Source: Candidatus Omnitrophota bacterium (GTDB lineage Bacteria > Omnitrophota > Gorgyraeia > JABMRG01 > JAFGKX01). From it: a stretch of 64,000 nucleotides of DNA. Location of the stretch: contig JAZDPX010000032.1 of NCBI GenBank assembly GCA_043797125.1, forward strand, positions 10,425 through 74,424, given 5' to 3'. A program made the position numbers and the translations under genes. This document shows, in pieces, positions 30,229 through 58,460 of the stretch. Below the pieces are notes generated by a model, which did no database searches, had not been told where the DNA came from, and was given only the letters and a program-made list of their open reading frames with translations. The first letter of the stretch is position 1, and every line of letters starts with the position of its first letter.

Positions 30229-30247
30229 CAAAGAGGAGGCAAATAAT

Positions 30248-34960: not shown

Positions 34961-36304
<1,344 letters not shown>

Positions 36305-36321
36305 AAAAAAGGGAGCGCGTT

Positions 36322-39570: not shown

Positions 39571-39571
39571 A

Positions 39572-41312: not shown

Positions 41313-41564
41313 ATGTTAAAAGCTGAAGTTTATATTACGTTAAAAAAGACAATAGCGGATCCGCAGGGCCTGATTATAAAGCACGCCCTTGAATCTTTGG
41401 GATACGGTTCTGTAAAAGAAGCAAGGGTGGGAAAGATGGTCATTGTAACTTTGGACACCGATGACAAAAAACAGGCCCAAAAACAGCTTGACCAGATGTG
41501 CAAAAAGCTTTTGGCGAATCCGGTTATCGAGGATTATAGGTTTGTTATAACAGAGGCAAAATGA
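41313..41564 (+). CDS. purS: Phosphoribosylformylglycinamidine synthase subunit PurS
   Basis: 83 aa, typical size; RBS AAGGAG; immediately precedes purQ and purL. Confidence 0.8.
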
Positions 41565-42259
41565 AATTCGCCGTTGTAGTATTCCCCGGTTCAAATTGCG
41601 ACCAGGACTGCTTTTATGTGGTTAAGGAAGTTTTAAAGCAGCCGGTTGAATATATATGGCACAAAGACACGAGCGTAAATAGCTTTGATTGCATTATCCT
41701 GCCCGGCGGTTTTAGCTACGGCGATTATTTAAGGACAGGGGCGGTTGCCAGGTTTTCCCCGATAATGAAGGAGATAGTCAAGTTTGCTAAAGAAGGCAGG
41801 ACAGTTATCGGTATATGCAACGGCTTTCAGATTTTGCTTGAGGCGGGGCTTTTGCCCGGGGCAATGCTTCGAAATACAGGGCTTCATTTTATCTGCAGGC
41901 ATGTCTATATAAGAACAGAAAATACAAAGACAAGATTTACCTCGTCGTGCAAAACGGACCAGGTCTTAAAAATACCCATTGCGCATAACGAAGGCAATTA
42001 CTATATAGACAAAAAGGGATTAAAAAAGCTGCAGGATAACAACCAGATAGTATTCAGGTACTGCAGCAAGCAGGGTAAGGTAAATGATGAGCACAATCCA
42101 AACGGGGCGCTGGATAATATAGCGGGTATTATAAATAAAAAGGGCAATGTCTTGGGGCTGATGCCGCATCCTGAAAGAAGTTCAGAAGAGGCACTAGGCT
42201 CAAGAGACGGTTTTTTAATTTTTGATTCAATTGTAAAATGGTTAAAACAAAAGCAATAG
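41561..42259 (+). CDS. purQ: Phosphoribosylformylglycinamidine synthase glutaminase subunit PurQ
   Basis: Class I GATase: catalytic GICNGFQ and the MPHPER motif. Confidence 0.9.
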
Positions 42260-44457
42260 ACAAAGATACATACAGGGCGTTAGGCCTGACAGACACCGAG
42301 TATGAAAAGATTTTAAGCCTGTTAGGGCGTGTGCCGTCACCTACGGAACTGGCGATGTTTTCTGTCGAGTGGTCGGAACACTGCGGTTACCCGCGTTCGC
42401 GAAACCTTCTTAAATTATTGCCGAAAAAAGGAAAATACCAGGTCTTGATAGGAGAAGATTCGGGCGGCATTATAGTAGATGACCTGGCCATTGTCTTTAA
42501 AATGGAAAGCCACAATCACCCCTCGCAGGTAGAGCCGAAACAAGGCGCTGCCACAGGCGTAGGCGGAATAATAAGGGATATCTTTACAGCAGGCGCAAGG
42601 CCTATTGCTTCGTTGAATTCTTTAAGATTCGGGCCGTTAAGCGAACCATATAACAGGTATCTTTTAAAAGGCGTGGTTGACGGAATACAATTTTACGGCA
42701 ACTGCCTTGGCGTGCCTACCGTCGGCGGGGAGATATATTTTGACGAAAGCTATTCGGGAAATTGCCTTGTAAACGCAATGAGTATCGGCATAGCGAAAAA
42801 GGACTGCCTTGCAAGGGCAAAGGCCTTTGGTGTAGGCAACTCGATTATGTACGTGGGCTCAAGCACGGGAAAAGACGGTATCGGCGGATGCAGCGTTTTG
42901 GCGTCGAGTGAATTTAAAGAAGGCGAAGAAAAAAGGCCAACAGTCCAGATAGGCGACCCTTTTACGGAAAAATGTTTGATAGAAGCGACATTAGAGGCAT
43001 TAGCCACGGGCCACGTAATCGGAATCAAGGATATGGGCGCAGCAGGGCTCACCTGTTCAACAAGCGAAATGGCTCAAGCCGGAGGCTGCGGCATAGACAT
43101 GGACCTGGATAAAGTTCCGCGCAGGGAAGAAAACATGGAACCATGGGAAGTGATGATGTCCGAATCACAGGAGAGGATGCTGGTTTGCGTTAAAAAGGGA
43201 AAAGAAAAAGAAATAGAGAAGATTTTTCAAAAATGGGATTTACACGGTGTTGTTATTGGAAAGGTTACTACAGACGGCATTGTGACAATTAAAGATAAAG
43301 GCAATATTGTGGCCCAAGTAAAGGCAAATGATTTAACCAATGCCCCTGTCTATGATATGCCTTATGTAAAGCCAAGCTCCCTGGATGAAATTATAAAGTT
43401 GGATATGAAAACAATTCCCCAACCTGAAGATTATAATGAGGTATTAATTAAATTATTGGAGTCACCATCAATAGCCAGCAAAGAATGGGTTTATCAGCAA
43501 TATGACCACATGGTGCAGACAAACACAATATGCCTGCCTAATATGGGCGCTAGTGTAGTCAGGTTAAAAGGCACTAAAAAGGCAATTGCAGCTACCACTG
43601 ACTGCAACAGCAGATATTGTTTTTTAAATCCCCATAGAGGCGCGCAGATTGCGATAGTGGAAGCGGCGAGAAATTTAGTAGCAGTCGGCGCAGAGCCTGC
43701 GGCAGTTACAGATTGCCTTAATTTTGGAAATCCTGAGAAACCTGACAGATTCTGGTATTTTAAGAATTGCGTAGAGGGTATTATAGATGCCTGTAAGGCA
43801 TTTAATATTCCAGTTGTAAGCGGCAACGTCTCGTTTTACAATGAAAACCCAAGAGGCGCTATTTACCCGACGCCTTCAATAGGAATGATCGGAATCATAG
43901 ATGATGTTAGCAGGGTCTGCACTCAGAATTTCAAAGACAAGGCCGATATAATAATGCTTTTGGGCGATTGCAAGGAAGAATTAGGCGCAAGCGAATATTT
44001 AAAGCAGGTTCACGGCCTTGTCAGAGGCGATGCGCCAAGCCTGGATTTGGCTTCGGAAAAAAATATCCAAAATGCAGCGCTTAAAATGATAAGAAACGGC
44101 CTTGTAAAATCCGCTCACGACTGCTCTGAAGGCGGATTAGCCGTTGCCATTTCAGAATGCTGCATAAGCGACAAAGAAAACATGATAGGCGCGGTGATTA
44201 ATAATCTTCCCTTTGATATCAGGAAGGACGCGCTTTTATTCGGAGAAACGCAGTCGCGCATTATCTTAAGCTGCAGTATGGATTGCGTTGATAAGATAAA
44301 AAAGACTGCCAAAGATAATGATGCCTCGCTGCATATAATAGGCACAGTCGGCGGCGATGTTTTAAAAATTTCAGCTAAACAAAAAGAGCTGATAAATATG
44401 CCTGTTGAAAAATTACATGACAGCTGGAGTAATTCTTTGAGGAAAATGATTGGTTGA
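42238..44457 (+). CDS. purL: Phosphoribosylformylglycinamidine synthase subunit PurL
   Basis: 739 aa. AIR-synthase-related duplicated domains; HNHPS motif ([11 protein letters not shown]). Confidence 0.9.
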
Positions 44458-44541
44458 GCGCAGATGATCACAGATTGAAAGACACAGATGATCACAGATA
44501 TCTGCGATCATCTTGTATCCTTTAATCTGTGATAATCTGCG
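44458..44541. repeat. 84-bp imperfect composite palindrome between purL and hisH (arms about 85% complementary), built from gatgatcacagat / atctgtgatcatc units
   Basis: gcgcagatgatcacagattgaaagacacagatgatcacagat | atctgcgatcatcttgtatcctttaatctgtgataatctgcg. Confidence 0.75.
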
Positions 44542-44562
44542 TTAAAAAAATTATTTTAAAAA

Positions 44563-45186
44563 ATGATAGCGGTAATTGATTACGGCTTAGGAAATATAAG
44601 AAGCGTCTCAAAGGCCCTGGAGAGAGTCGGAGCTAAAGTAAAAGTAACTGACTCACCCGGCGAAATAGCCAAGGCCGAGGCGCTGGTGTTTCCCGGCGTA
44701 GGGGCTTTTCGCACCGGAATGAAGAACCTTAAAGAAAAAGGAATACTCGCCGCAATACTTGATGCCGTAAAAAAAGATAAGCCGTTTTTAGGGATATGCC
44801 TGGGGTTTCAGCTTCTTTTCAGCGAAAGCGAAGAACATGGGCCGACGAAAGGCCTGGATATTATTAAAGGAAAAGTAATAAGGTTTACGGGCAAAGTTAA
44901 AGTGCCGCATATGGGATGGAATACTGTAAAGCTTCAAAGCCCACAGCCCACAGCCCACAGCCCACAGCTATTTGATAATATCCCAAATGACTCCTATTTC
45001 TACTTTGTGCATTCGTATTACGCTGTGCCAGAGGATAAAAGCGTTGTAATCGCAACCACAAAATACGGGATAGAGTTTGCTTCAGTCGTAAATAAGGGCA
45101 ATGTCTGGGGGGTGCAGTTTCATCCCGAGAAAAGCTCTGATTTTGGGTTAAAGATATTGGAGAATTTTGTTAAAAATGTTAGCTAA
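44563..45186 (+). CDS. hisH: Imidazole glycerol phosphate synthase glutaminase subunit HisH (with an in-frame heptamer-repeat insertion)
   Basis: GICLGFQLL catalytic Cys, [20 protein letters not shown]. Confidence 0.9.
44940..44967. repeat. Tandem heptamer CCCACAG x4 inside the hisH coding sequence (encodes [10 protein letters not shown])
   Basis: cccacag cccacag cccacag cccacag. The 16-mer caaagcccacagccca is shared with the small ORF at about 30018. Confidence 0.85.
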
Positions 45187-45967
45187 AAGAATCATCCCAT
45201 GCCTTGATGTAAAAGACGGCCGCGTGGTAAAGGGGATAAACTTCATTAATTTAAAAGACGCAGGAGACCCTGTTGAATGCGCCGCAGCCTATAGCAAGGA
45301 AGGCGCTGACGAACTTGTATTTCTGGATATAACAGCAAGCCACGAGGCAAGAAAGACAATGCTTGAGGTTGTGCGAAAGACAGCGGAACAGGTGTTTATT
45401 CCTTTTACGGTCGGCGGCGGCATATCAAGTATCGAGGATATAAGACTGCTTCTAAAGACCGGCGCAGATAAGATTTCAATAAATACAGCAGCTGTCGAGA
45501 ACCCGGATTTGATTAAGCAGGGCGCCGAAGCGTTTGGGAGTCAATGTATAGTTGTTGCTATAGACGCGAAAGAACAAAAGCCAGGACCATCGACCATCGA
45601 CCATCGACCATCAACTAAAACATGGGAAGTATATACTCATGGGGGAAGAAAGCCTACTGGAATCGACGCTATAGAGTGGGCCAAGAAGGCCGAGAGCTTA
45701 GGCGCTGGCGAGATTTTACTTACAAGTATGGATAGAGACGGCACAAAAGACGGTTATGATTTAAAATTGACGCGCGCTATTTGCGAAGCTGTTAATATTC
45801 CTGTAATCGCATCAGGCGGGGCAGGGACTTTGCAGCATTTATGCGATGCGTTGTCAAAAGGTAAAGCAGACGCAGCTCTTGCAGCTTCGATTTTTCACTA
45901 CGGAGAATATTCTATTAAGGAAGCGAAGGGGTATCTTAGGAAACAGGGGATAGAAATCAGGGTTTAA
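45167..45967 (+). CDS. hisF: Imidazole glycerol phosphate synthase cyclase subunit HisF (with an in-frame heptamer-repeat insertion)
   Basis: [16 protein letters not shown], (beta/alpha)8 phosphate-binding motifs GGGI and SGGAG. Confidence 0.9.
45588..45615. repeat. Tandem heptamer CCATCGA x3-4 inside the hisF coding sequence (encodes [10 protein letters not shown])
   Basis: ccatcga ccatcga ccatcga ccatcaa. Its reverse complement GTCGATG is the same unit as the array at 10645-10675. Confidence 0.85.
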
Positions 45968-46066
45968 AATTAAAAATTCAAAATGCAAAATGCAAAATTG
46001 CAATTTAAAATTCAAAAACTGGAGTTTTTTAATTTTTAATTGAAATTTTACATTTTTACTTTTTAA
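45968..46066. repeat. About 100-bp extremely AT-rich low-complexity spacer with inverted aaattcaaaat/attttgaattt ends; contains a 20-mer (aaaatgcaaaatgcaaaatt) identical to the batD start region
   Basis: aattaaaaattcaaaatgcaaaatgcaaaattgcaatttaaaattcaaaaactggagttttttaatttttaattgaaattttacatttttactttttaattttgaatttcaaaattt. Confidence 0.7.
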
Positions 46067-46101
46067 TTTTGAATTTCAAAATTTACGGAGTAAACTGGAC
46101 A

Positions 46102-47472
46102 ATGTGCGGTATATTCGGAATACACGGCCATAAAGAAGCTGCGAGGCTTACTTACCTGGGGCTTTACGCGCTGCAGCACAGAGGCGAGGAAAGCGCAGGC
46201 ATAGTTACATACGTAAATAAAAACATCAAATACCATAAAGGCATGGGCCTTGTAAGCGACGTATTTGATGAACGCGCTATTAAGTCCTTGCGCGGTGATT
46301 TTGCCGTAGGCCATGTGCGTTATTCCACCACAGGTTCAAGCATAGCAAAAAACATACAGCCGTTTTTTATACACCATAAAAAAGGTTATATCGCGATTGC
46401 CCACAACGGTAATCTTACAAATGCTCATAAACTGCGCCAGGATATGGAAGGCCAGGGCTCTATTTTTCAGACTACAATAGACTCGGAGATAATAGCGCAT
46501 CTTTTTGCCAAGTCAGCAGAAAGTACCATGCAGGATATCGTAACCGATGCGCTGCTTAAACTTGAAGGCGCATATTCACTGGTTCTTATGTTTAACGACG
46601 TCTTGATAGGCGCAAGGGACCCGCGCGGTTTCAGGCCTCTATGTTTGGGAAAGATAGACGGGGCATATGTCCTTGCAAGCGAGACCTGCGCCTTAGACCT
46701 TGTGCATGCCGACTATATACGGGATATTGAGCCCGGCGAGATAGTCTTTATAAGCAAAGATACAATAAAATCAATTAAGCCTTTCGGGAAATGCAGGAAT
46801 TCATGCTGCATATTTGAGTTTATCTATTTTGCGAGGCCTGACAGCAACATATTCGGCGCTAATGTATACAAGGCAAGAAAGCGCTTGGGCGAGCAGCTTG
46901 CTAAAGAGCATCCTGCGCAATGCGACTTAGTCATGTCTATACCTGATTCGGGAAATTACGCCGCCGTAGGTTTTGCCCAGAAATCAAAGATGCCGCTTGA
47001 AGTCGGGATGATAAGAAACCATTATATAGGAAGGACATTTATACAACCCTCGCAATTTTTACGGGATTTCAGGGTAAAGATAAAGCTCAATCCCATCAAG
47101 GATGTTATAAAAGGAAAACGTATTGCGGTTGTGGAAGATTCCATTGTGCGCGGCACGACAAGCAAGGCCAGGATAAAGACGTTAAAAGACGCAAAAACCA
47201 AAAAGATTCATATGCGTATCAGCTGTCCTCCAATTAAATTTCCGTGCTTTTACGGTATAGACTTTCCGACTAAAAGAGAGCTGATAGCGTCAAAATACAG
47301 CGTAAACCAGATAGGAAATTTTATAGGAGTGGATACCCTGAAGTATCTAAGCTTAAAAGGCATGTTAAAAGCGATGCCGCTTGAAGAAAATAAATTCTGC
47401 ACGGCATGTTTTAGCGGGGATTATCCTACGCAAGTGTCGAAAAACATCACAAAAAATATTTTAGAAAAATAA
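46102..47472 (+). CDS. purF: Amidophosphoribosyltransferase
   Basis: N-terminal MCGIFG (Ntn-hydrolase catalytic Cys), PRTase motif VVEDSIVRGTT. Confidence 0.9.
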   Translation: MCGIFGIHGHKEAARLTYLGLYALQHRGEESAGIVTYVNKNIKYHKGMGLVSDVFDERAIKSLRGDFAVGHVRYSTTGSSIAKNIQPFFIHHKKGYIAIAHNGNLTNAHKLRQDMEGQGSIFQTTIDSEIIAHLFAKSAESTMQDIVTDALLKLEGAYSLVLMFNDVLIGARDPRGFRPLCLGKIDGAYVLASETCALDLVHADYIRDIEPGEIVFISKDTIKSIKPFGKCRNSCCIFEFIYFARPDSNIFGANVYKARKRLGEQLAKEHPAQCDLVMSIPDSGNYAAVGFAQKSKMPLEVGMIRNHYIGRTFIQPSQFLRDFRVKIKLNPIKDVIKGKRIAVVEDSIVRGTTSKARIKTLKDAKTKKIHMRISCPPIKFPCFYGIDFPTKRELIASKYSVNQIGNFIGVDTLKYLSLKGMLKAMPLEENKFCTACFSGDYPTQVSKNITKNILEK

Positions 47473-47487
47473 AAGAAGGGCTTTACC

Positions 47488-49008
47488 ATGTTGAACAAAA
47501 CAGGGTTTGATAATTACAAATATTTAAAAGAACAGACAGAGGCTATCCTAAAGAGGGTAGAAAAATTTAATGACAAACTGTATCTTGAATTCGGAGGCAA
47601 GCTTATTTTTGATTATCACGCCGCAAGGGTCCTGCCCGGTTTTGACCCAAACGTGAAAATAAGGCTGTTGCAGCAGCTTAAGGATAAGGCGGATATAATA
47701 CTTTGTATTTTCGCGGGAGATATAGAAAGAAGAAAGGTAAGGGCTGATTTCGGCATTACCTATGATGTTGACGCGCTTAAACTGATAGATGATTTAAGAA
47801 AATGGCATATTGAGATATGCGCCGTGGTGATAACGCGTTTTAATAACCAGCCGGCGGCAAAAATATTCAAGAATAAATTAGAAAGAAGAGGCATAAAAGT
47901 ATATACCCACGCTGCTACAAAAGGGTACCCGAAAGATGTCGATTTAATAGTGAGCAATAAAGGCTACGGAGCGAATCAGTATATAGAGACTAAAAAGCCG
48001 CTGGTTATTGTCACCGGCCCGGGGCCGGGAAGCGGCAAATTAGCCACTTGCCTTTCGCAGCTTTACCATGATTATAAGAAGGGTAAAATGAGCGGATACG
48101 CGAAATTTGAAACATTTCCGATATGGAATCTGCCCCTGGAACATCCTGTAAATGTTGCTTATGAAGCAGCTACAGCTGATATCGGAGACTTTAACCAGAT
48201 AGACACATTTCATTTAAAGGCCTACAAGAAAAAGACAGTCAATTATAACCGCGACGTAGAAATATTTCCCGTAATAAGGAAGATACTTTTGAAGATAATG
48301 AAGACCAAAAAGCCGATATATAATTCTCCTACGGATATGGGCGTAAACCGCGCAGGATTCGGAATTACTGATGATAAAATAGTCAGGGAGGCTGCAAAAC
48401 AGGAGGTTATAAGGCGTTATTTCAGGTATAACTGCGAATACCTGATGGGATTTGTGGAAAAGGACGCTGTCGAAAGGCTGGAGTCACTGATGAAAAGGCT
48501 TAAGCTCAAACCGCAGGACAGAAACGTCGTTGAACCCGCGCGAGTTGCTGCTGAAGACGCGAAAAACAAAAATAAAGGAAACGAGGGAATTTTTTGCGGC
48601 TCTGCAATCGAGCTTAAAGACGGCACGATCGTTACAGGAAAAAATTCTGAGCTTCTTCACGCCGCATCAAGCCTTATCTTAAACGCGGTAAAAAAATTGG
48701 CGGAGCTGCCGGATAAAATACACCTTCTATCACCCAGCACAATAGATGCAATAGGTGTTTTAAAAAAGAGCATCTCAAACGCAAAGAGCGTAAACCTCGA
48801 TTTGGAAGAAGCGTTGATAGCCCTTAGCATAAGCGCGTCAACAAATACGGCTGCGCAGCTTGCCATGGAAAAATTAAACCAACTGCAGGACTGCGAAGTG
48901 CATATGACCCACATGCCTACGCCAGGGGATGAAACAGGATTAAGAAGGCTCGGGGTTAATCTTACGACAGATGCTAATTTCTCCAGCAAAAGCCTTTTTG
49001 TGGTATAA
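47488..49008 (+). CDS. DUF1846/UPF0371 family protein
   Basis: N-terminal FDNYKYLKEQTEAILKRV...KLYLEFGGKLIFDYHAARVLPGFDPN and later VIVTGPGPGSGKLATCLSQLYHD, as I recall for UPF0371 proteins. Confidence 0.55.
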   Translation: MLNKTGFDNYKYLKEQTEAILKRVEKFNDKLYLEFGGKLIFDYHAARVLPGFDPNVKIRLLQQLKDKADIILCIFAGDIERRKVRADFGITYDVDALKLIDDLRKWHIEICAVVITRFNNQPAAKIFKNKLERRGIKVYTHAATKGYPKDVDLIVSNKGYGANQYIETKKPLVIVTGPGPGSGKLATCLSQLYHDYKKGKMSGYAKFETFPIWNLPLEHPVNVAYEAATADIGDFNQIDTFHLKAYKKKTVNYNRDVEIFPVIRKILLKIMKTKKPIYNSPTDMGVNRAGFGITDDKIVREAAKQEVIRRYFRYNCEYLMGFVEKDAVERLESLMKRLKLKPQDRNVVEPARVAAEDAKNKNKGNEGIFCGSAIELKDGTIVTGKNSELLHAASSLILNAVKKLAELPDKIHLLSPSTIDAIGVLKKSISNAKSVNLDLEEALIALSISASTNTAAQLAMEKLNQLQDCEVHMTHMPTPGDETGLRRLGVNLTTDANFSSKSLFVV

Positions 49009-49019
49009 TAAATACCGAT

Positions 49020-49742
49020 ATGGCAAAGACTAAAAAGACACATACAAAAGAATCAGATACCGGCAAGCAAGTGATAGGCGCCTTAGCCAAAATAAGCGAG
49101 GTTATTACCTCCGATCTGTATCTTGAAGATATTCTAAAATTAATAGTTAATGTCACTGCCGAGGCAATGGGCTCCAAGATATGTTCTCTTATGCTGCTGG
49201 ACAAGGGAGGTAATGAGCTTTCAGTCAAGGCCACGCAGTCTGTGAGCGAAAGATATAATAAAAAACCTAATATAAAATTGGGTCAAGGCATAGCCAGCAT
49301 AGTGGCTAAAACAGGCGAGCCCATTACATCCGCGGACGTAAGAAAAGACGAGCGTTATTTAAGCCGCGATGTAGCGATAAAAGAGAAACTTTGTTCTTTA
49401 TTATGCGTGCCTTTGATTTTTAAAAAGAGGGTCATAGGCGTGCTTAACTGCTATACAGCAAAGCCGCATCGTTTTACGCAGAATGAGATAAGCGTGATAA
49501 AATCCGTTGCGAATCAGGCTGCCATTGTTATCGAGAATTTCAGGCTGGTTATTGAGTCCAAGGTAATAAAAGAAGAGCTTGAGGCCAGGAAGATAATAGA
49601 AAAGGCCAAAGGCATCTTAATGAAGCGCGAGAATTTATCCGAGCAGGACGCCTACCAGAAAATCCGAAAATACAGCATGGATAACCGCAAGTCCATGCGT
49701 GAAGTTTCCGAAGCGATTGTGCTAAGTGAAGAGATAAAATGA
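49020..49742 (+). CDS. GAF + ANTAR domain RNA-binding antiterminator-type regulator
   Basis: GAF-like region (KICSLMLLDKGGNELSVKA...VIGVLNCY). C-terminal ANTAR motif (ARKIIEKAKGILMKRENLSEQDAYQKIRKYSMDNRKSMREVSEAIV). Confidence 0.75.
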   Translation: MAKTKKTHTKESDTGKQVIGALAKISEVITSDLYLEDILKLIVNVTAEAMGSKICSLMLLDKGGNELSVKATQSVSERYNKKPNIKLGQGIASIVAKTGEPITSADVRKDERYLSRDVAIKEKLCSLLCVPLIFKKRVIGVLNCYTAKPHRFTQNEISVIKSVANQAAIVIENFRLVIESKVIKEELEARKIIEKAKGILMKRENLSEQDAYQKIRKYSMDNRKSMREVSEAIVLSEEIK

Positions 49743-49771
49743 CTTAGCAGGCCTTAAGGCCTGCTAAGTCA
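49740..49771. repeat. CTTAAG-centred palindrome (type 4, 32-bp perfect) TGACTTAGCAGGCCTTAAGGCCTGCTAAGTCA, beginning in the ANTAR gene stop codon
   Basis: Perfect palindrome. Arms differ again from types 1-3 by compensatory changes while retaining CTTAAG. Confidence 0.85.
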
Positions 49772-49793
49772 TTCCCGCGGAAGCGGGGATCTA

Positions 49794-49835
49794 TCTTTTG
49801 CGTGCTTGCTTTCGCTTGTCGCTCGCAAAAATTGG
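49794..49835. repeat. Left copy of an about 41-bp imperfect direct repeat bounding the 4.1-kb island (right copy 53914-53954)
   Basis: tcttttgcgtgcttgctttcgcttgtcgctcgcaaaaattgg versus tcttttgtgtggttgccttcgcttgccgctcgcaaaaaggat (about 85% identity). Confidence 0.7.
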
Positions 49836-49838
49836 ATG

Positions 49839-51626
49839 CTATGCGGCGGAGTCGATGGCTGCATAGGAAGAAATCTTTTCAGTGGGTATGGTATCTATTA
49901 ATTTTTCTAGCGCAACGATTGCTTGTTGTATTTCAGGCACGATTTCTCTTAATGCCTGCATTTTATGTTTTGCATCATCACTTTTACAAAAAGTCTGATA
50001 CAGGATGTAGCGAAAAGCACTATTGGGAGGGATATGATCATTTTCTGTATTTACAAAACCAAAAATTTTTTCATATTTAGAAAAGTCTTTTTCTTCAACA
50101 AAATCAACAAAAGGCCGAAGAGCTAAGCTAAATTCCTCAATAATTTGCTTAGCTAAAATACTATTTTTTCTTAGTATTGAGGGGCTATTCTGACCATTGC
50201 AAATATCTTGCTTTATTCTAGATAATCTCTCTTTGGAGAAAAGCCCTCTGTATACAATAACATGCTCTGCGCTTGTGTGAAATTTATCATTATTCCTATC
50301 CTGCGGGCTTCCTTTTACCCAAAAATCAAGTGGAGGTATTAGATTCATCAAGCTTTCATAGAGCTCTTCAGCATACATAAGCTGTGCCTGTACGTTTTCA
50401 AGTGACGAAGCTTTTTTTAGCTTTGGTTTTTTAGGAAAGTTAAAACCGCAAGGCAGCTTTATTATAACTGTCGTACCTTTGCCAAGTTTTGATTTTACAT
50501 CAACCGTGCCGCCAATATCTTTAATAATATAATAGGCTGCTGTAGCGCCAATTCCTGTATGGGTTTCCATATAGCAGCTGTTGCGTTCTTTACTTTCATT
50601 TATATTAAATAAAGCCGGCCTTTCCATGATACAGTCATGTTTTAAAAAATCCTCTGAAACGCCGCCTCCTTTGTCTGTAATTTGTATTTTCACAAAGTTG
50701 CCATTTTTCGTTATTCGCATTGTGACCGTACTATGTTCATAATTTGTTGTTGAAAAATCTATGGCATTTTCAACGATTAATTCTATGGCGCCCTGTAGCA
50801 TTACATCGTTGCAATAAATGTCTACAGGATTCTTTAAATTATTTTTTATTTTTAATTCCACATCCCCACTTACCACCTTGTCGTAGCGTTTTTTGACCCT
50901 TTCATTTACATTCTTTATAATTTCGCTAATAGAATGATGTTTATAGCTGTGTTTATATCCCTGCGGGAAATCTATAATAGGTAATGATGCCTCTAAAATA
51001 ATATTCAAATTTGTTAAAATAAATGTAAACACATCAATCCTGTCAGGTTCTTCTTTGTCTTCGAAAAAAAACTGACTTTTTAGAAAATCATCTGCGAGAA
51101 CTTCTCTAAGGATTTTCTCCATGTTTCTTTTAACTAGTATGATATTTCTTCGTTCGTTAAATAGTATGTCATTATATTTAGTCAAGTCCGATGAAGCAGT
51201 TGCATAATTTAAGGAATCCTCTCCCGCTTTTTCTAGCATGCTCCTTAAATTTTCATTGTGTTTAAAATATAGTTCAGTCGTTTCTTTAACCATATCATAC
51301 ATATTATAAAAATGTCTGCTTTTACCTGACCCCTCCTCCCAATAATCATACCATCTATTGCACGAACCCATTAAGGAACCCATGCGCGCAGATGTATTAT
51401 GGTAAGCTTCAGGTATTCCGAAAATGTTAGCCGTAGGTAAACTCAAAAGTCGTATTGCTACAATAAAACGTTCTATATCTTCTCGTTTTTCCTTTGGTAA
51501 AGTATAGAATTTTTCTTTTGGTGAGAGTTTTTTCAAAGAGAGGTTATTTGCTATCGGTCGTAGTGAATAAGCAGACTGCGGCATTGTTAATATAATAAGC
51601 AGTATAATTGTTATGATTTTCCTCAC
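49839..51626 (-). CDS. Signal-peptide protein with GHKL/HATPase_c-type ATP-binding domain (histidine-kinase-like, atypical; no clear HisKA H-box or TM sensor architecture)
   Basis: N-terminal MRKIITIILLIILTMPQSAYS. G-boxes ...ITDKGGGVSEDFL... and THTGIGATAAYYIIKDIGGTVDVKSKLGKGTTVIIKLP. Confidence 0.6.
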   Translation of the reverse strand: MRKIITIILLIILTMPQSAYSLRPIANNLSLKKLSPKEKFYTLPKEKREDIERFIVAIRLLSLPTANIFGIPEAYHNTSARMGSLMGSCNRWYDYWEEGSGKSRHFYNMYDMVKETTELYFKHNENLRSMLEKAGEDSLNYATASSDLTKYNDILFNERRNIILVKRNMEKILREVLADDFLKSQFFFEDKEEPDRIDVFTFILTNLNIILEASLPIIDFPQGYKHSYKHHSISEIIKNVNERVKKRYDKVVSGDVELKIKNNLKNPVDIYCNDVMLQGAIELIVENAIDFSTTNYEHSTVTMRITKNGNFVKIQITDKGGGVSEDFLKHDCIMERPALFNINESKERNSCYMETHTGIGATAAYYIIKDIGGTVDVKSKLGKGTTVIIKLPCGFNFPKKPKLKKASSLENVQAQLMYAEELYESLMNLIPPLDFWVKGSPQDRNNDKFHTSAEHVIVYRGLFSKERLSRIKQDICNGQNSPSILRKNSILAKQIIEEFSLALRPFVDFVEEKDFSKYEKIFGFVNTENDHIPPNSAFRYILYQTFCKSDDAKHKMQALREIVPEIQQAIVALEKLIDTIPTEKISSYAAIDSAA

Positions 51627-51777
51627 GGCATAGCCCTTTAACTTCGTAACACCTTTAATTAAATGTCTTAATTAAGCCGAAAATACTAAATCCCATAGGT
51701 AGAAACTTCAAAGAAGTTCTACCTATGGGACCCTTTTCAAAATTACATCCATATTATAGCATATGAGAGTAGCATAT

Positions 51778-52266
51778 TCAAGGAAATAAAAATAATAGTC
51801 TGTGCCAAGACATGCCCCGCTTCTTAAATCTATGGGCGATGAACTTGTCGACGTTAGATTCCATGGCTCCTGAGCCCTTTATACGGCGCCTTATTGTTTT
51901 ATCTTCTATTCGCTTTATGGGGTTTATGCCTTGGCGGTTCTGATCTATATATACGTAAAGATCATTTATGGAATCCTTCATTCTTATGTCCTTTGTCCTG
52001 GTAAGTATTCTCTTTATAGTGGAAAGCGCTTTGTCTATCTGGTCTTTCTTTATGAGGTCATTTATCTTAAGCTGCATATCTGGCCTTTTAGAGAGGGCGC
52101 GCTTTATGTTTCTTTTTAAGTGGAACTTGCTTAGGATATATATGGCGCCTGGGAAGCAATCTTTAATCCCGGCTGTTATATACGCGCCTCCATCTCCGCC
52201 GAATATAACCGCTTTTGAGCTTGAGAGCCGGAGTTTCTTTTCGGCGATGAGGCTTAAGTTTTCCAT
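51778..52266 (-). pseudogene. ISL3-family-like transposase, C-terminal fragment only (N-terminal about 60% absent)
   Basis: AIYILSKFHLKRNIKRAL resembles the ISL3 DRFH(V/I)xK region. The C-terminal basic tail is present, but no continuation of the reading frame upstream. Confidence 0.5.
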
Positions 52267-52464
52267 GAAGAGACGCCCTTTTTCAATGCCGGAATATGTA
52301 AACTTATTCTTAAGCTTTAATGAGGCGTCAAAGCCGGCATTGTAGCGCTTGACTTTGCTGCCCCAATCTTATTAAAGAAGTAGTGATATTTTTTTAATAA
52401 CAAAGCGTAAACAAGTCTACTGTTAAAGCACGCTTTAACAGTATTTGTTTTTATTAAAGAAAAC

Positions 52465-52493
52465 TTGACATTTCTTTAATAGTAATGTATAAT
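52465..52493 (+). promoter_or_regulatory. Sigma70-like promoter TTGACA-17-TATAAT for fic
   Basis: aaacTTGACAtttctttaatagtaatgTATAATttctatgctATGaac; implies the fic start is ATG 52503. Confidence 0.5.
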
Positions 52494-52502
52494 TTCTATG
52501 CT

Positions 52503-53654
52503 ATGAACAAAAATAGAGGGGGCATATATATAACCCAATCACAAGGTTATAAGGCTTTTATCCCAACAAAACTTCCGCCAAAACCGCCGCTTAATATCGA
52601 TAATACAATTATAGAGTTGTTATCAAAGGCAGATATAGCTATCGGCCGCCTTTCGGGTATATCTGAAACACTGCCTAATCCTGACTTATTTGTCGCCATG
52701 TACGTAAGGAAGGAAGCTGTTTTGAGTTCTCAGATAGAAGGAACAGAAGCGTCCTTAGAAGATTTATTAGAGTATGAATCCGGAAATGGGGTAAAAAAAT
52801 TGCCAAATGATATAACAGAAGTTGTCAATTATATTAAGGCAATGAACTATGGATTAAAACGCATAAATGAGCTGCCTCTCTCTCTTAGATTAATCAAGGA
52901 AATCCATTTTGAATTAATGGAAGGTGTTAGGGGCGGTGATAAGACTCCGGGCGAGTTTAGAAAAACACAAAATTGGATAGGCCCAAAAGGATGCGTTTTA
53001 AACAATGCGAGGTTTGTGCCTCCTCCGCCGCATGAAATGATTCAGGCCTTGAGCGATTTAGAAAAATATATGCATTCCGAGTTAAATTATCCGCTGCTGA
53101 TAGAATGCGGGCTTATCCACACTCAATTTGAAACTATACACCCGTTTTTAGATGGTAACGGCCGCATAGGAAGATTGCTTATCGCATTTTTTTTATGCCA
53201 TAAAGGAATATTGAAAAAACCATTGCTCTATTTGAGTCATTATTTCAAACAAAACCGCCTTGAATATTACGATAGGCTTATGAATGTAAGGGAAAAAGGA
53301 GATTTTGAATCCTGGATAGAATTTTTTCTGGAAGGCGTTAAAGAAACAGCCCAAGAGGCCTGTGAAGCATCTTATAAAATATTGAAGTTAAAAGATGCTG
53401 ACAGAAGAAAAATCAGTGAAATTTATAAAGAATCCTCAAAAACAGCGTTACTGCATGAAAAGTTATTTGACAGGCCTGTTATTTCAATAAAAGATATAGC
53501 TGCTATTATAAATACCACTTTCCCAACAGCAAATTCCATTTGCAGCAAACTTATTAAATTGGGTATATTAAAAGAGGTAACAGGCAAAGAAAGAAATAAA
53601 TTGTTTACTTATAAAAGCTATTTGGATATTCTTAAACAAGAAGCTAATGTTTAA
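52503..53654 (+). CDS. fic: Fic-family protein (FIC domain with C-terminal winged-helix-like region)
   Basis: Canonical FIC motif HPFLDGNGRIGRLL (HPFxDGNGRxxR). Confidence 0.85.
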   Translation: MNKNRGGIYITQSQGYKAFIPTKLPPKPPLNIDNTIIELLSKADIAIGRLSGISETLPNPDLFVAMYVRKEAVLSSQIEGTEASLEDLLEYESGNGVKKLPNDITEVVNYIKAMNYGLKRINELPLSLRLIKEIHFELMEGVRGGDKTPGEFRKTQNWIGPKGCVLNNARFVPPPPHEMIQALSDLEKYMHSELNYPLLIECGLIHTQFETIHPFLDGNGRIGRLLIAFFLCHKGILKKPLLYLSHYFKQNRLEYYDRLMNVREKGDFESWIEFFLEGVKETAQEACEASYKILKLKDADRRKISEIYKESSKTALLHEKLFDRPVISIKDIAAIINTTFPTANSICSKLIKLGILKEVTGKERNKLFTYKSYLDILKQEANV

Positions 53655-53688
53655 ATGTTACGATTACAGCTACTAAGAAGCAGGCCTC

Positions 53689-53717
53689 TTGACAAACCCA
53701 AAATCGTGTGGTATAGT
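53689..53717 (+). promoter_or_regulatory. Sigma70-like promoter TTGACA-17-TATAGT downstream of fic
   Basis: ctcTTGACAaacccaaaatcgtgtggTATAGTtatg. Confidence 0.45.
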
Positions 53718-53723
53718 TATGTT

Positions 53724-53788
53724 GTAACAAGGCGCGATGTTGGCGCTTAAATTTTAACAAAGGCGTTCGAAAGAACGCCTTATTTTTT
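53724..53788 (+). ncRNA. Candidate about 65-nt small RNA (promoter to intrinsic terminator)
   Basis: Promoter at 53689-53717, followed within about 45 nt by GGCGTTCgaaaGAACGCCttatttttt (53762-53788). A second terminator lies at 53797-53838 (GGTGTTC...GAACACCtttttt). Confidence 0.3.
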
Positions 53789-53796
53789 AGGACAAA

Positions 53797-53838
53797 GGTG
53801 TTCTTATGCCTGAAGAAAGGCATGGGAACACCTTTTTT
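53797..53838 (+). terminator. Second intrinsic terminator (tandem with 53762-53788)
   Basis: aGGTGTTCttatgcctgaagaaaggcatggGAACACCtttttt. Confidence 0.55.
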
Positions 53839-53913
53839 ATTGATAGGGGCCTCGTGGTCCTGTTCTATCTTTGGTTCGGTTTTTGCAATGCTTGGTGCTG
53901 AAATCTTAAGCAA

Positions 53914-53954
53914 TCTTTTGTGTGGTTGCCTTCGCTTGCCGCTCGCAAAAAGGA
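53914..53954. repeat. Right copy of the island-bounding direct repeat, followed by a repeat-dense gcaaaaa/tttttgc region to about 54135
   Basis: See 49794-49835. Downstream recurring motifs: cgctcgcaaaaa, tttttgctcgc, ggcaaaaattgc, tttcgcaatttttgac, ccttgcaaaaacc. Confidence 0.7.
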
Positions 53955-54142
53955 TTTTTCGCCTTCGGCGAAAGGCACTTTTTGCTCGCTGTGGCAAAAA
54001 TTGCTCACTTCTCGCCGGGTTTTCGCAATTTTTGACAGTCGCTCCGGCAACACACACAAAAGCTTTTGCAAATGTATCTCACCTTGCAAAAACCTCACCG
54101 ACACTAAAAGTCAGGCCGAGGGGTTATTTTAGGCAAAGTTAG

Positions 54143-54229
54143 CGGCGGGTGTCTGGCCGAGCCGAAGCCCTCACCGCCCGCAACGAAAGTGAGGACGGTG
54201 AGGTGGCTCGGCCAGACAGGCCCCGCCAC
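54143..54229 (+). promoter_or_regulatory. GC-rich about 87-nt extended hairpin upstream of the sigma-factor gene (candidate structured RNA or REP-like element)
   Basis: gcggcgggtgtctggccgagcc...cctcaccg...cggtgagg...ggctcggccagacaggccccgcc. Outer stem about 20 bp, inner stem 8 bp. Strongly GC-rich relative to its surroundings. Confidence 0.5.
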
Positions 54230-54264: not shown

Positions 54265-54783
54265 ATGGATTTTAAGATTTTACTGGAGAAAATAACGCCT
54301 GCGCTAAAGGCCATTGCCAGAAAGAGGCTGCTTTACAGTTTCTACAGCGAAGAGGACCTTTATCAGGAGATGTGCCTTTTTCTGTGGAGCAGGTATAAAG
54401 ATGGTATGCCTATCGGTTTTAATGAGTCGTATATAATTAAGGCATGCGAATTTCATATGTTGAATTTCTTAAGAAAAGGCAGGCCAAAGGTAATGTTGAT
54501 GAGCTTGGATGAGCCTATTACGTCAGAAGGGCTCAGGCTTGAGGATATTTTAGAAGACAAAAAAGATACCTTTTCTGAAAGCGCAGATAGAAACATAAGC
54601 ATAGATGATATTAAAAACATAGGCCTTACGCCTAAAGAAAATAATGTATTCTCGCTTTTGCTTAAAGGTTACACAGTAAGGGAAGCGGCGCAAGAACTGG
54701 GCATCTCCCATGTCATGGTGCTTAAATATAAGAAGAATATAATAAGGAAGTGGGTTACCAAGAGTAAGAAAAATTTACTTTAG
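54265..54783 (+). CDS. Sigma-70 family (ECF-like) RNA polymerase sigma factor
   Basis: Region-2-like LYQEMCLFLWSRY. Region 4 HTH LTPKENNVFSLLLKGYTVREAAQELGISHVMVLKYKKNIIRKW. Confidence 0.6.
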   Translation: MDFKILLEKITPALKAIARKRLLYSFYSEEDLYQEMCLFLWSRYKDGMPIGFNESYIIKACEFHMLNFLRKGRPKVMLMSLDEPITSEGLRLEDILEDKKDTFSESADRNISIDDIKNIGLTPKENNVFSLLLKGYTVREAAQELGISHVMVLKYKKNIIRKWVTKSKKNLL

Positions 54784-54786
54784 TAT

Positions 54787-56049
54787 ATGTCAATGTCCAC
54801 TTTTAACATAGGAGATAATATGATAAACGCTGGCGATACTGCATGGGTGCTTGTTTCAACGGCGTTTGTTTTGCTGATGACGCCGGGCCTCGCATTTTTT
54901 TACGGGGGCATGGTTAGGAAGAAGAATATATTAAGCGTATTGATGCAATGCTACATAATTATCTGTGCCTTAAGCATTCAATGGGTCCTGTTTGGGTATA
55001 GCCTTTCTTTTGCTCCAGGAGGAATTTTCTGGGGAGGATTAAAATGGTTTGGTTTAAACGGCGTAGGCATGGAACCTTACGCAAATTACGCCCCTACAAT
55101 TCCGCATCAGGCGTTTATGATTTTTCAGGGAATGTTCGCTGTAATTACCCCGGCTTTAATAATAGGAGCTTTTGCCGAAAGAATGAAGTTCTCCGCTTTT
55201 CTGGTGTTTAGCCTGCTTTGGGCAACGTTTGTGTATGATCCGTTAATTCATTGGGTGTGGGGCGACGGAGGATGGCTTAAACAGCTCGGGGTTCTTGATT
55301 TTGCCGGAGGCATAGTAGTGCATACGAGCGCCGGCATAGCGGCCTTAGTAGCTGCTATAATAATAGGCAAAAGAAAAAATCTCGATACCAATACGCCGAC
55401 TCCTCATAACCTTCCATTTGTAGTATTAGGCACAGGCCTTTTATGGTTTGGCTGGTTTGGATTCAACGCCGGCAGCGCTTTGGCAGCAAATGGTTTGGCA
55501 GTAAATGCTTTTGTTGCGACAAATACAGCTGCAGCAAGCGCTGGTTTAATTTGGGCATTGCTTGAATGGATACGAAACGGCAAGCCTACAGTGTTTGGTG
55601 TTATAACCGGTTCAGTTGCCGGCCTTGCTACGGTTACGCCAGCCTCGGGATTTATCAATGCGTCATCGGCCTTAGTCATAGGCGTATTAGCCAGCATACT
55701 TTGTTATATAGGAGTGGCGGTTATTAAACCTAAATATGGTTATGATGATTCATTGGATGTGTTTGGCGTTCATGGCTTAGGAGGTATATTGGGCACATTA
55801 GCGGTAGGTTTATTTGCTTCCAAGGCTATTAATGCTGCCGGTAATAACGGCCTGTTTTACGGCAACCCAAAACAATTGGTAATTCAGTTAGTCGGTGTTT
55901 TGGTTGCCGGTGTTTATGTATTTATAGTTACATTTATTATATATAAATTTGTAGATATATTCTTCAGAATGCGCGTAAGCGAAAAAGAAGAGCTTATGGG
56001 CCTTGACTTAACCCAGCATCGCGAAAGGGCGTATACGGTATTAGAATAA
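54787..56049 (+). CDS. amt: Ammonium transporter (Amt family)
   Basis: 11 TM helices, Amt signature DFAGGIVVHTSAGIAALV. Followed by glnK. Confidence 0.9.
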   Translation: MSMSTFNIGDNMINAGDTAWVLVSTAFVLLMTPGLAFFYGGMVRKKNILSVLMQCYIIICALSIQWVLFGYSLSFAPGGIFWGGLKWFGLNGVGMEPYANYAPTIPHQAFMIFQGMFAVITPALIIGAFAERMKFSAFLVFSLLWATFVYDPLIHWVWGDGGWLKQLGVLDFAGGIVVHTSAGIAALVAAIIIGKRKNLDTNTPTPHNLPFVVLGTGLLWFGWFGFNAGSALAANGLAVNAFVATNTAAASAGLIWALLEWIRNGKPTVFGVITGSVAGLATVTPASGFINASSALVIGVLASILCYIGVAVIKPKYGYDDSLDVFGVHGLGGILGTLAVGLFASKAINAAGNNGLFYGNPKQLVIQLVGVLVAGVYVFIVTFIIYKFVDIFFRMRVSEKEELMGLDLTQHRERAYTVLE

Positions 56050-56061
56050 GGAGAGGTTATT

Positions 56062-56403
56062 ATGAAACTTATAATCGCAATAATTCAGCCATATAAATTA
56101 GAAGAGGTTAAAGAACAGCTATATAAAGAGGAAGTCAATCTTATAACCGTAAGCGAAGTTTTAGGCCATGGCCGCCAAAAAGGCGTAACAGAGGTTTACC
56201 GAGGGCACAAAGAAACAGGCAACCTCTTAAGAAAGGTGAGGATTGAGATAGCTGTAAATGAAAATTATGTGGAGCGCACCATAAACGCGATTATAAAAGG
56301 CGCAAAAACAGGCGAAACAGGAGACGGTAAGATCTTTGTCTTGGATTTGCCGGAGTGCATACGTATCCGCACCGGGGAGCGCGGTGGGGTAGCGATAGGT
56401 TAA
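56062..56403 (+). CDS. glnK: P-II nitrogen regulatory protein (GlnK-type, amt-linked)
   Basis: 112 aa. [18 protein letters not shown]-loop region, C-terminal GDGKIFV. Confidence 0.9.
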
Positions 56404-56420
56404 GCGTTAATGACAGGCGA

Positions 56421-56545
56421 GAGTTAGAATATCAGATTATAAGAGTATCAGAACGAGATTATCAGAGAATCAGAGTATCAGATAAATCTGGTGATCTTAT
56501 GTTCTGATATTCTCGCTCTGATAATCTGGTCTTCTGATAATCTTT
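56421..56545. repeat. About 125-bp imperfect palindrome between glnK and glnA: left half has multiple TATCAGA units, right half multiple TCTGATA units
   Basis: gaatatcagattataagagtatcagaacgagattatcagagaatcagagtatcagataaatctggtgatcttatgttctgatattctcgctctgataatctggtcttctgataatc. Confidence 0.75.
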
Positions 56546-56758
56546 CTCCAGCCTTGACAACTAAAAGAAAATTTTGCAGCACGGTTACCAAAACCAGCAA
56601 AAATTTACTTGTATATATGGATAGCAGCAGTATGCACGGCATTGCGCAAGGATTGTGCAAAAACTCACTTAAAACAAGGGCGTTTTAAAGCAATATAATC
56701 TTTAAAACGCCTTAATTTTTAACAAGCCTACCATGCGGTAAGGCACAAGGAGGAAAAA

Positions 56759-58129
56759 ATGGCAAAGGTAAAAATAAGCGCAAAAACAAGCAGCGGTCCA
56801 GGTAAAAACACCAAAGAGGACATTTTGCGGCTTGCAAAAGAGAAGGATGTAAAATTCATCAGGTTATGGTTTACTGATGTAATAGGCCAGGTTAAGAGTT
56901 TCGCTATTACGGATAAAGAATTAGCAGGGGCATTGGAAAATGGCATGGGCTTTGACGGCTCTTCAATTACAGGATACCAGGATATAGAAGAGTCGGATAT
57001 GATTGCAATGCCTGATCCAACCACATTTACGATACTTCCGTGGAGGCCCGGTGAAAAGGCAGTTGCCAGAATGATATGTAATATATTAAATCCGGATAGA
57101 ACGCCCTATGAAGGCGACCCGAGGTACGTATTAAAAAAGGCTCTTGAGCGCGCCAAAAAAATGGGGTTTGACCATTTTTATTTAGGGCCTGAGCTTGAAT
57201 ATTTTTATTTTAAAAATGATCAGGGAACTGAAATTTTGGACAAAGGCGGTTATTTCGACCTCACCACCCTTGATGTCGCAAGCGATTTAAGAAGAGAGAC
57301 TGTGCTGGCTTTGGAAAAAATGGGCATACAAGTTGAGTATTCTCATCATGAGGTCGCTCCGTCCCAGCATGAAGTAGATATGCGATACAAAGACGCTTTA
57401 CAAATGGCGGATTCTGTAATTACTTACAGGGTTGCTGTGAAGGAAATAGCAAGCAAATTTGGGGTATATGCTACGTTTATGCCTAAGCCGTTATTTGGTC
57501 AAAACGGATCAGGCATGCATACTCACCAGTCGCTGTTTAAGGGTGATAAAAATATGTTTTTTGACCCAAAGACAAAGGATTTTCTTTCGGAAACAGCTTA
57601 TAGTTATATTGCCGGGCTTTTAAAACACGCGAAGGAAATATGCTCCATATTTGCGCAGACAACAAACTCTTATAAAAGATTGGTTCCGGGTTACGAAGCT
57701 CCGGTTTATATAGCGTGGAGCCGCAGAAACAGAAGCGCCCTTGTAAGGGTGCCGCTATATTATCCGGGCAAAGAGCTTGCAACGCGCTGCGAATTCAGGG
57801 CATGCGATCCGGCTTGCAATCCATATCTGACATTTGCAGCTATGCTGCACGCAGGCTTGGAAGGTATAGAAAAAGGTTATAGAGCTCCTGCGCCTATGGA
57901 TCAAAACCTTTACCATCTTACAGATACGGAGAGAAGGAAAAAAGGCATAGAAATTCTACCGGACAGCCTTGGGCAGGCAATAGCAATAACAGAGGAGAGC
58001 GCACTTGTTAAAAAGATACTTGGCGATCACATCTTTCCGAGATTCATCGAGCTTAAGAAAAAAGAATGGGATGATTACAGGATACAGGTTACTCAATATG
58101 AACTTGATAAGTATCTTTCTGTAATGTAA
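56759..58129 (+). CDS. glnA: Glutamine synthetase type I
   Basis: GS-I motifs FDGSSI, MPKPLFGQNGSGMHTHQSLF (ATP-binding), NSYKRLVPGYEAP; RBS AGGAGG. Confidence 0.9.
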   Translation: MAKVKISAKTSSGPGKNTKEDILRLAKEKDVKFIRLWFTDVIGQVKSFAITDKELAGALENGMGFDGSSITGYQDIEESDMIAMPDPTTFTILPWRPGEKAVARMICNILNPDRTPYEGDPRYVLKKALERAKKMGFDHFYLGPELEYFYFKNDQGTEILDKGGYFDLTTLDVASDLRRETVLALEKMGIQVEYSHHEVAPSQHEVDMRYKDALQMADSVITYRVAVKEIASKFGVYATFMPKPLFGQNGSGMHTHQSLFKGDKNMFFDPKTKDFLSETAYSYIAGLLKHAKEICSIFAQTTNSYKRLVPGYEAPVYIAWSRRNRSALVRVPLYYPGKELATRCEFRACDPACNPYLTFAAMLHAGLEGIEKGYRAPAPMDQNLYHLTDTERRKKGIEILPDSLGQAIAITEESALVKKILGDHIFPRFIELKKKEWDDYRIQVTQYELDKYLSVM

Positions 58130-58157: not shown

Positions 58158-58460
58158 TTGGGCAGAAGGGGGTATTTTGTGAATGCGGATGCACAAAAAA
58201 TAGGCAATTGTTTTAAGAGGCATTGCGATATGAACAGCGGCAACGATATAGATAAAATAGATGAGTTCTTTTTTACGGCAGAAAAAGGCGCAATCTATAA
58301 CTGCGTCATAGCCCATTTTGAGAAGATACTTATAGAAAAGGCGCTGGAAGAAACTTACGGCAGGCAGGTTCTTGCGGCAAAACTGTTGGGATTAAACCGC
58401 AATACCCTGCGCAAGAAGATTAAGGACCTGCATATTGATACGCAGGTATTCAGGCAATGA
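58158..58460 (+). CDS. Small stand-alone Fis-type (HTH_8) DNA-binding protein; stop overlaps the gltB start
   Basis: C-terminal QVLAAKLLGLNRNTLRKKIKDLHI matches the NtrC/Fis C-terminal HTH. No receiver or AAA+ domain. The true start may be the internal Met (MNSGNDID). Confidence 0.5.
   Translation: MGRRGYFVNADAQKIGNCFKRHCDMNSGNDIDKIDEFFFTAEKGAIYNCVIAHFEKILIEKALEETYGRQVLAAKLLGLNRNTLRKKIKDLHIDTQVFRQ

Follow-up and report, generated by a model that had tools for sequence, protein, structure and literature searches.

What came between a GAF-ANTAR regulator gene and the nitrogen-assimilation genes beside it is the question raised by a locus in a Candidatus Omnitrophota bacterium (contig JAZDPX010000032.1). 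The locus lies in a stretch of 64,000 nt, referred to below as the window, whose numbering is used throughout. In a preliminary description, a 4.1-kb block at 49794–53954 was taken for an island bounded by direct repeats of about 41 bp, with the repeats as possible attachment (att) sites. The repeat was correctly observed, and the idea of an insertion was correct as well. The att-site reading is wrong. The repeats belong to a dispersed structured element, and it is highly probable that the spacer between the regulator gene and the operon grew to 3.9 kb by nested insertions, in which a foreign block landed between the ANTAR gene and the operon promoter.

Borders of the inserted DNA

The regulator gene (49020–49742, plus strand) encodes a protein of 240 amino acids (aa) with Pfam matches to GAF_2 (1.8e-23) and ANTAR (4.5e-21), which is 100% identical to P0001 of a Candidatus Omnitrophota metagenome-assembled genome. 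Beyond the block, a sigma-70-family/LuxR-type gene (the sigma-like gene), amt, glnK (P-II) and glnA follow on the plus strand (54265–58129), in the gene order of the relatives. Pfam bore out the placement of the block between the GAF-ANTAR gene and these genes.

Five relatives (L043, L044, L047, L048 and L008) are uninterrupted at this point, which upholds the earlier proposal that an insertion parts the ANTAR regulator from the nitrogen cluster. The ancestral order read from them is the ANTAR stop codon, 0–24 nt, a sigma-70-type promoter, an ANTAR-type attenuator leader, and then sigma and amt genes or amt alone. In L043 and L044, whose ANTAR and sigma proteins are 76% and 72% identical to those of the window, the stop codon is followed after 4 nt by TTGACA and then by sigma-amt-PII-glnA. 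The ANTAR stop codon of L047 (sigma 75% identical) overlaps the -35 box, while the distance from stop codon to promoter is 24 nt in L048 (ANTAR 78% identical) and 7 nt in L008. The island is not present at the ANTAR-promoter site of any of the five, so that a spacer of a few bases in the relatives compares with one of 3.9 kb in the window. Because the five relatives put the promoter directly after the ANTAR gene, the extra DNA of the window is 49743–53688 and not 49794–53954.

The promoter that marks the right border is TTGACA-17-TATAGT with a TG (53689–53717, plus strand). It aligns with the post-ANTAR promoters of the relatives and is taken as the native sigma-70-type promoter of the sigma-amt-glnK operon. 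Together with the leader that follows, it occupies 53689–53835, inside the island as first drawn, between the stop codon of a Fic gene and the right repeat. The repeats are thus not the borders of the island.

An exact 9-bp direct repeat, AGCAGGCCT, was found at both junctions (49746–49754 and 53679–53687, plus strand), the right copy ending 1 nt before the -35 box. It flanks an insert of 49755–53678. The word is the only one of at least 7 nt shared by the two junction zones, with an estimated chance expectation of ~0.004, and is a candidate target-site duplication or microhomology. Excision of 49755–53687 leaves the stop codon, 13 nt and TTGACA, inside the range of the relatives. Before the insertion, the empty site would be expected to read ...AAATGACTTAGCAGGCCTCTTGACA....

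Composition was to be compared with the rest of the window, and the block does deviate in both GC content and tetranucleotides. The AT-rich foreign core, 49832–53678, has a GC content of 0.36 against 0.43. For 49832–53685 the value is 0.357, below all 210 same-size segments elsewhere in the 64 kb, and only 1 of these 210 has a larger tetranucleotide distance. The AT-rich DNA stops at ~53680, not at 53912. When the borders are taken from the relatives, the left one moves by ~40 nt and the right one by ~230 nt from where they were first drawn; short direct repeats can mislead.

The dispersed structured element

The direct repeat itself is real, although it is shorter than first stated. It measures 39 nt, of which 35 are identical between the copies at 49793–49831 and 53913–53951, and the longest exact stretch common to both is 12 nt. 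The degenerate consensus of the repeat and its 21-nt core have only two sites in the window, where shuffles lead one to expect 0.00–0.02.

A complete element of 152 nt with a predicted three-way junction (53913–54064, plus strand) begins 78 nt downstream of the leader terminators, and the right copy makes up its first 39 nt. A family profile (nhmmer) recovered it at 53916–54063 with E 7e-37. The left copy is the 5' stub of a second element (49793–49831, plus strand), made up of the 5' half of the outer stem and the first 24 nt of the core. The same profile matched this stub of 38 nt at 49795–49837 over profile positions 3–40 only (E 1.6e-4). A complete copy on the right and a stub on the left therefore account for the 39-nt direct repeat. 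Beyond this one full copy and one 5' fragment, no further copies were detected in the window by profile search. The stub and the full copy share an ATC prefix, where other genomes have AGC or AGA, which suggests that the foreign DNA disrupted a native copy and left the stub.

The element was also found far from this locus. Species-representative genomes were scanned with the 21-nt repeat core and gave three matches, of which those in L011 and L012 are due to chance and that in L013 is informative. In L013 the match runs for ~125 nt and is ~90% identical to the DNA to the right of the right repeat, in an unrelated gene context. Metagenomes were scanned with one exact 19-mer from the far end of the element, which yielded 28 loci, ~20 of them with the element. 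Since all copies came by way of this 19-mer, the search itself dictates that the block is invariant. The right repeat is accordingly part of a complete dispersed element of 150 nt that occurs in unrelated loci, and does not behave as an att-like island end. The preliminary description had allowed that the repeat might be a common intergenic motif, and in the sense of a family it is one.

Alignment of 19 distinct full copies (A1) defined the layout. The outer stem has conserved ends (AGMTTTTG...CAAAAKCT) and a variable middle. The interior consists, in order, of a conserved strand TTGCCTYCGCTTGYCGCTCG, a variable hairpin, a conserved CTCGCTGTGGCAAAAATTGC hairpin and a conserved GACAGTCGCTCCGGCAA strand. 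RNAalifold predicted a three-way junction of 34 pairs, 14 of which have compensatory changes. Pairing on the consensus structure reached 96.1% of cells compared with 37–50% in slid controls, and the covariation score was 0.302 compared with at most 0.086. The third stem also changes in a compensatory way in the divergent copy L015, and the window copy folds with a z-score of -5.45. Either strand may be the one that folds: the antisense strand is slightly more stable, by a mean of 2.4 kcal/mol and in 13 of the 19 copies.

The ~20 copies sit between unrelated housekeeping genes. Genes downstream of them include cysS, glyS, a class I (Trp/Tyr-type) tRNA synthetase gene, the C-terminal part of fumarase, ispD and coaX, as well as pfkB, manC, pilM, ogt and tag. 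Two copies are on a single 243-kb contig (Ga0082335_1000093). The nearest upstream open reading frame (ORF) is on the strand of the element in all 17 loci with upstream sequence, and the gap to its stop codon is 3–7 nt in 6 of the 17. Genes in such genomes follow replication, and the orientation bias could therefore stem from replication or from transcription. L033 and L036 have truncated or internally deleted forms of the element, and the outer halves are mismatched or rearranged in the copies of L025 and L036. These last two copies come from one sample series, and the sequence on the 5' side of the L025 copy (2744–2894) is the reverse complement of that on the 3' side of the rearranged L036 copy (930–976). 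Such a relation points to exchange between copies or to chimeric assembly at the repeat.

In several respects the element resembles the ERIC/IRU, REP/BIME, Correia/NEMIS and NIME repeats of bacteria. Shared features are a length of 100–150 nt, multiple copies in intergenic positions between unrelated genes and also within operons, a long imperfect palindrome with compensatory changes, and the occurrence of truncated and internally deleted copies. It differs in forming a three-way junction with highly conserved junction strands and not a simple hairpin. It also follows the strand of the upstream gene, often 3–7 nt past the stop codon. We know of no partner transposase for the element.

The conserved 3' block of the element contains TTGACA, and CAAAAT follows after ~18 nt in half of the copies, while the window copy has CAAAAG. 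By analogy with Correia elements, the element might carry an outward-facing promoter. The window copy failed in a promoter scan. A sigma-54 promoter within the element was rejected, as the spacing is GG-N8-GC and not N10. An integron attC site was likewise rejected, since here the interior is conserved and the outer stem varies, contrary to attC, R'/R'' boxes are lacking and the flanks are housekeeping genes. Readings as an IS200/IS605 element or omega-RNA, a retron or a bridge RNA were considered, and no partner gene was found beside any copy.

The element is a dispersed structured intergenic repeat family with no match in Rfam 15 or in the phage and plasmid collections. In Rfam 15 no match fell on it at E up to 10, and the only matches, spurious ones to microRNAs, were on the neighboring GC-rich hairpin. 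Viral scans with two blocks of the element gave a single chance match in a coding region. No relevant literature on Omnitrophica repeats was found. The element could act in RNA processing or stability, as a protein-binding module, as a portable promoter with its TTGACA as -35 box, or as a non-autonomous mobile element that some enzyme handles in the form of single-stranded DNA.

Contents and arrival of the foreign block

Three genes lie between the repeat copies: a minus-strand ORF of 595 aa with an HATPase_c domain, a minus-strand transposase fragment of 162 aa and a plus-strand Fic gene. The block had been described as containing the only minus-strand genes of the window; apart from these two, the window has no minus-strand ORF of 100 aa or more with domain support.

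The transposase fragment (51778–52266, minus strand) is truncated at both ends. It had been called ISL3-like, an assignment that did not hold: NCBIfam (transpos_ISLre2, 2.6e-25) and Pfam (UPF0236, 2.3e-17) place it in the ISLre2/UPF0236 family of DDE transposases, with coverage of profile positions 162–304 of 382.

The Fic gene (52485–53654, plus strand; probable start 52503) adjoins this transposase remnant on the compositionally foreign DNA and has a GC content at third codon positions (GC3) of 0.32. A consensus sigma-70 promoter, TTGACA-17-TATAAT (52465–52493, plus strand), matches at 12 of 12 positions and precedes it. The earlier recognition of a Fic protein is confirmed, and the protein is of the defense-type SoFic class by both its PADLOC profile and solved SoFic structures. 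It matches the PADLOC SoFic profile with 1.9e-126 over positions 5–360 of 361 and aligns over its full length to the SoFic structures 3EQX and 3ZCN (PDB SoFic chains, ~1e-33 to 1e-34). Patterns were tested for the catalytic motif, HxFx(D/E)GNGRxxR, and the inhibitory motif, (S/T)xxxE(G/N). As read from the sequence, both HPFLDGNGRIGR (53140–53175) and SSQIEG (52725–52745) are intact. With SoFic of Shewanella oneidensis (3EQX/3ZCN) the protein shares the Pfam Fic_N and Fic domains, both motifs and the full-length profile match, whereas a similarity of only about 1e-34 to the solved proteins makes it a distant member. The gene is predicted to be an intact SoFic-type anti-phage defense gene with its own promoter, and its product would act in phage defense as an auto-inhibited adenosine monophosphate (AMP)-transferase.

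The third gene, for an orphan histidine-kinase-like ATPase (49839–51626, minus strand; HATPase_c 4e-12), has a GC3 of 0.295. Its longest ORF is 595 aa and the annotated one 565 aa, starting from 51536. Among 1.8 billion cluster representatives, homologues were found for the core of residues 130–370 only and none was full length. The PDB matches of the protein are CA domains of sensor kinases. It has no PADLOC match and is no part of the described SoFic system. The best distant matches of the ATPase core fall within giant proteins of 1300–3900 aa. Giant ORFs were seen elsewhere in the window (2215 aa, 18312–24959) and in L038 (>2818 aa, 3–8459).

From the left, the insert begins with the second arm of a palindrome, followed by a REP-like hairpin, the element stub and, from 49832, the AT-rich DNA. 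The hairpin and the stub are repeats typical of this genome. The REP-like hairpin, GTCATTCCCGCGGAAGCGGGGATC, and the T-run after it were detected in a terminator scan and are terminator-like (49767–49791, plus strand). The motif GTCATTCCC-N8-GGGAATC recurs at gene ends, namely at 49767–49791, at 30205–30229 on the minus strand and at 3624–3643 of L018, a contig of another metagenome. The shape ATTCCC-N8-GGGAAT is that of the neisserial dRS3 repeats.

How this DNA arrived may be pictured in two steps. A copy of the element would first have settled just downstream of the ANTAR stop codon, the usual site for the family, and foreign DNA would then have replaced the 3' three-quarters of that copy. 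The profile search did not recover the missing ~110 nt of the stub's element beyond the right edge of the foreign DNA. This excludes a simple insertion into the element and requires a later deletion or replacement.

The likeliest single route for the replacement, tentatively held, is delivery by a transposon. The TnGBS/ISLre2 (p-MULT 3) DDE transposons generate 8–9-bp repeats on insertion, which takes place 15–17 bp ahead of the -35 box in sigma-A promoters (Guerillot et al. 2014, PMC3942029). It is because of this target preference and these duplications that such a route is suggested. The likeness to this locus consists of the remnant of a transposase of the family within the block, the 9-bp flanking repeat and the position of the block just upstream of a sigma-70-type -35 box.

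Several observations weigh against this history. The distance from the end of the block to the TTGACA at 53689 is 10 bp, whereas 15–17 bp would be typical. The inverted repeats of 18–39 bp are missing, and local alignment of the insert ends (49755–53678) gave terminal inverted repeats no better than shuffles. What remains of the transposase covers 143 of 382 profile positions, has a host-like GC content of 0.417 and is located mid-block rather than at an end. The block is therefore a mosaic, and the 9-bp repeat cannot be tied to the ISLre2 transposase. A perfect palindrome of 18 + 18 nt without spacer (49738–49773; inverted repeat I5, 100% complementary) straddles the left border of the insert and takes in the ANTAR stop codon. 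It is not explained by this history and may be a native terminator or an inverted duplication that arose with the break. Finally, the nearest relatives are only ~75–78% identical in protein, so that any timing or order of events is tentative.

The main alternative route, which we consider rather unlikely, is homologous or illegitimate recombination with a related Omnitrophota donor. Here the element would have served as portable homology, no transposition would have taken place, and the 9-bp repeat would be microhomology or chance. The element is indeed ~90% identical between genomes, and the outer halves of the L025 and L036 copies suggest exchange between copies. The exact end of the stub at the start of the foreign DNA and the lack of inverted repeats at the insert ends would also fit. 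However, the kinase-like and Fic genes, with GC3 near 0.30, are unlike the host genome, no second crossover point within an element is present on the right side, and an exact 9-bp match at both junctions is unlikely by chance.

Less probable still is site-specific integration of the 4.1-kb block into the 5' end of the element, in the style of tRNA islands, with the 39–41-bp repeats as attL and attR. The anatomy does resemble that of integrase islands at tRNA genes, where foreign DNA is flanked by an incomplete and a complete copy of a structured element. A spacing of 4.1 kb between two copies would also be unusual at a density of ~1 per 180 kb, the value for the Ga0082335 contigs. Yet the repeat is a dispersed family, and Pfam and NCBIfam gave only HATPase_c, the ISLre2 DDE fragment and Fic in the block, with no integrase or other tyrosine or serine recombinase gene. 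Such a model would turn the native promoter and leader (53689–53835), which intervene before the right repeat and which the five relatives place after the ANTAR gene, into island DNA. It would also require the AT-rich DNA to reach 53912, beyond its end at ~53680. The 26-nt core of the stub is no closer to the right copy, with 2 mismatches, than to the copies of L017 and L028, with 1 mismatch each. The island had no match in the plasmid or phage collections.

That the contig falsely joins two regions at the repeated element, so that the island would not truly lie beside the ANTAR gene, is very improbable. In its favor, the contig comes from a metagenome-assembled genome, assemblers can be misled by dispersed repeats of 150 nt, and the L025 copy looks hybrid. 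But a false join would leave a complete repeat with mismatched flanks and not a 38-nt stub, the longest exact match between the two copies is only 12 nt, and both junctions would need to be false. A biological insertion is also in keeping with the 9-bp repeat and with the promoter left intact at the right junction.

Leaders of the nitrogen genes and meaning of the locus

ANTAR attenuators of the EutV, NasR and AmiR type have two hexaloop hairpins, the second of which competes with a terminator. Ramesh et al. are said to have described this dual-hexaloop design of ANTAR targets in 2012. Hairpins of this type before the nitrogen genes had been anticipated in the preliminary description, and were found upstream of both sigma-amt and glnA.

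The leader of the sigma-amt operon (53730–53835, plus strand) is composed of P1 (53730–53748), P2 with the sequence AAC-AAAGGC-GTT (53756–53767) and two terminators (53760–53781 and 53794–53835). P2 overlaps the first terminator. The second leader of this type in the window precedes glnA (56553–56725). Nitrogen-gene leaders of the relatives share a TTGACA/TGnTATAnT promoter, a GCAC-AxxGxx-GTGC hairpin, an AAC-AxxGGC-GTT hairpin and a terminator, whose 5' arm is the GGCGTT of the second hairpin. The promoter, AAC-AxxGGC-GTT and the terminator are common to 10 leaders, and most have P1 as GCAC-AxxGxx-GTGC. The 18-nt terminator GGCGTTCGAAAGAACGCC is identical in the window and L043. The likeness to ANTAR-controlled attenuators, namely P1 and P2 hexaloops with A1 and G4 and the 3' side of P2 as the 5' arm of the terminator, spans the leaders of sigma-amt and glnA here and those of amt, glnA and gdh in relatives. 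The P1 loop of the leader at 53730–53748 differs from the hexaloop: it is atypical, with 7 nt starting with G.

From the adjacency of the genes, it is inferred that this leader is bound by the GAF-ANTAR protein, and the ANTAR gene probably controls the downstream operon. An ANTAR protein acts on leader RNA in trans, and promoter and leader are intact downstream of the insertion; nitrogen control is therefore probably preserved. Of the idea that the island split a regulator from its targets, the physical separation stands and the loss of control probably does not. What the insertion would have cost is read-through from the ANTAR gene into the operon, which the new terminators after ANTAR would stop.

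The full element now lies within the 5' untranslated region of the sigma-like gene, as does a long GC-rich hairpin of 88 nt between the two (54141–54228, plus strand; inverted repeat I4, fold z-score -7.9). The dispersed element is not in the leaders of L043, L045, L047 and L048, nor at the site in L008 and L044. At the position of the 88-nt hairpin the relatives have a second GGCGTT...AACGCC attenuator instead. Between glnK and the glnA promoter, 56415–56550 forms a near-perfect hairpin of 135 nt built of TATCAGA/TCTGATA units (z-score -7.15), for which Rfam gives only a spurious MIR821 match. This hairpin may be a further inserted repeat or a group of sites for a regulator.

Upstream, the ANTAR gene closes a long plus-strand run of nitrogen and nucleotide genes (34964–49742), including guaA-like, purF-like and DUF1846 genes. 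The ORFs at 34964–36304 and 36322–39570 are like gdh and carB of L001 in size and may be their counterparts; in L001, gdh-carB-DUF1846 are close to the ANTAR gene. Downstream, a small HTH_8 gene (58158–58460) precedes gltB, as in the relatives.

The islet is an ordinary small, decayed and horizontally acquired block with a known single-gene defense system. For Omnitrophota, the locus adds the picture of an ANTAR regulon with dual-hairpin attenuators before sigma-amt, glnA and gdh, which the insertion left intact. The element is of more interest than the islet. It is strongly conserved across metagenomes, and we think it quite possible, though short of probable, that it represents an undescribed class of structured nucleic acid in Omnitrophota-like bacteria, either a functional RNA or a non-autonomous mobile element, that may also be a preferred breakpoint for foreign DNA. 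As such it offers a candidate RNA or mobile element from a phylum about which little is known.

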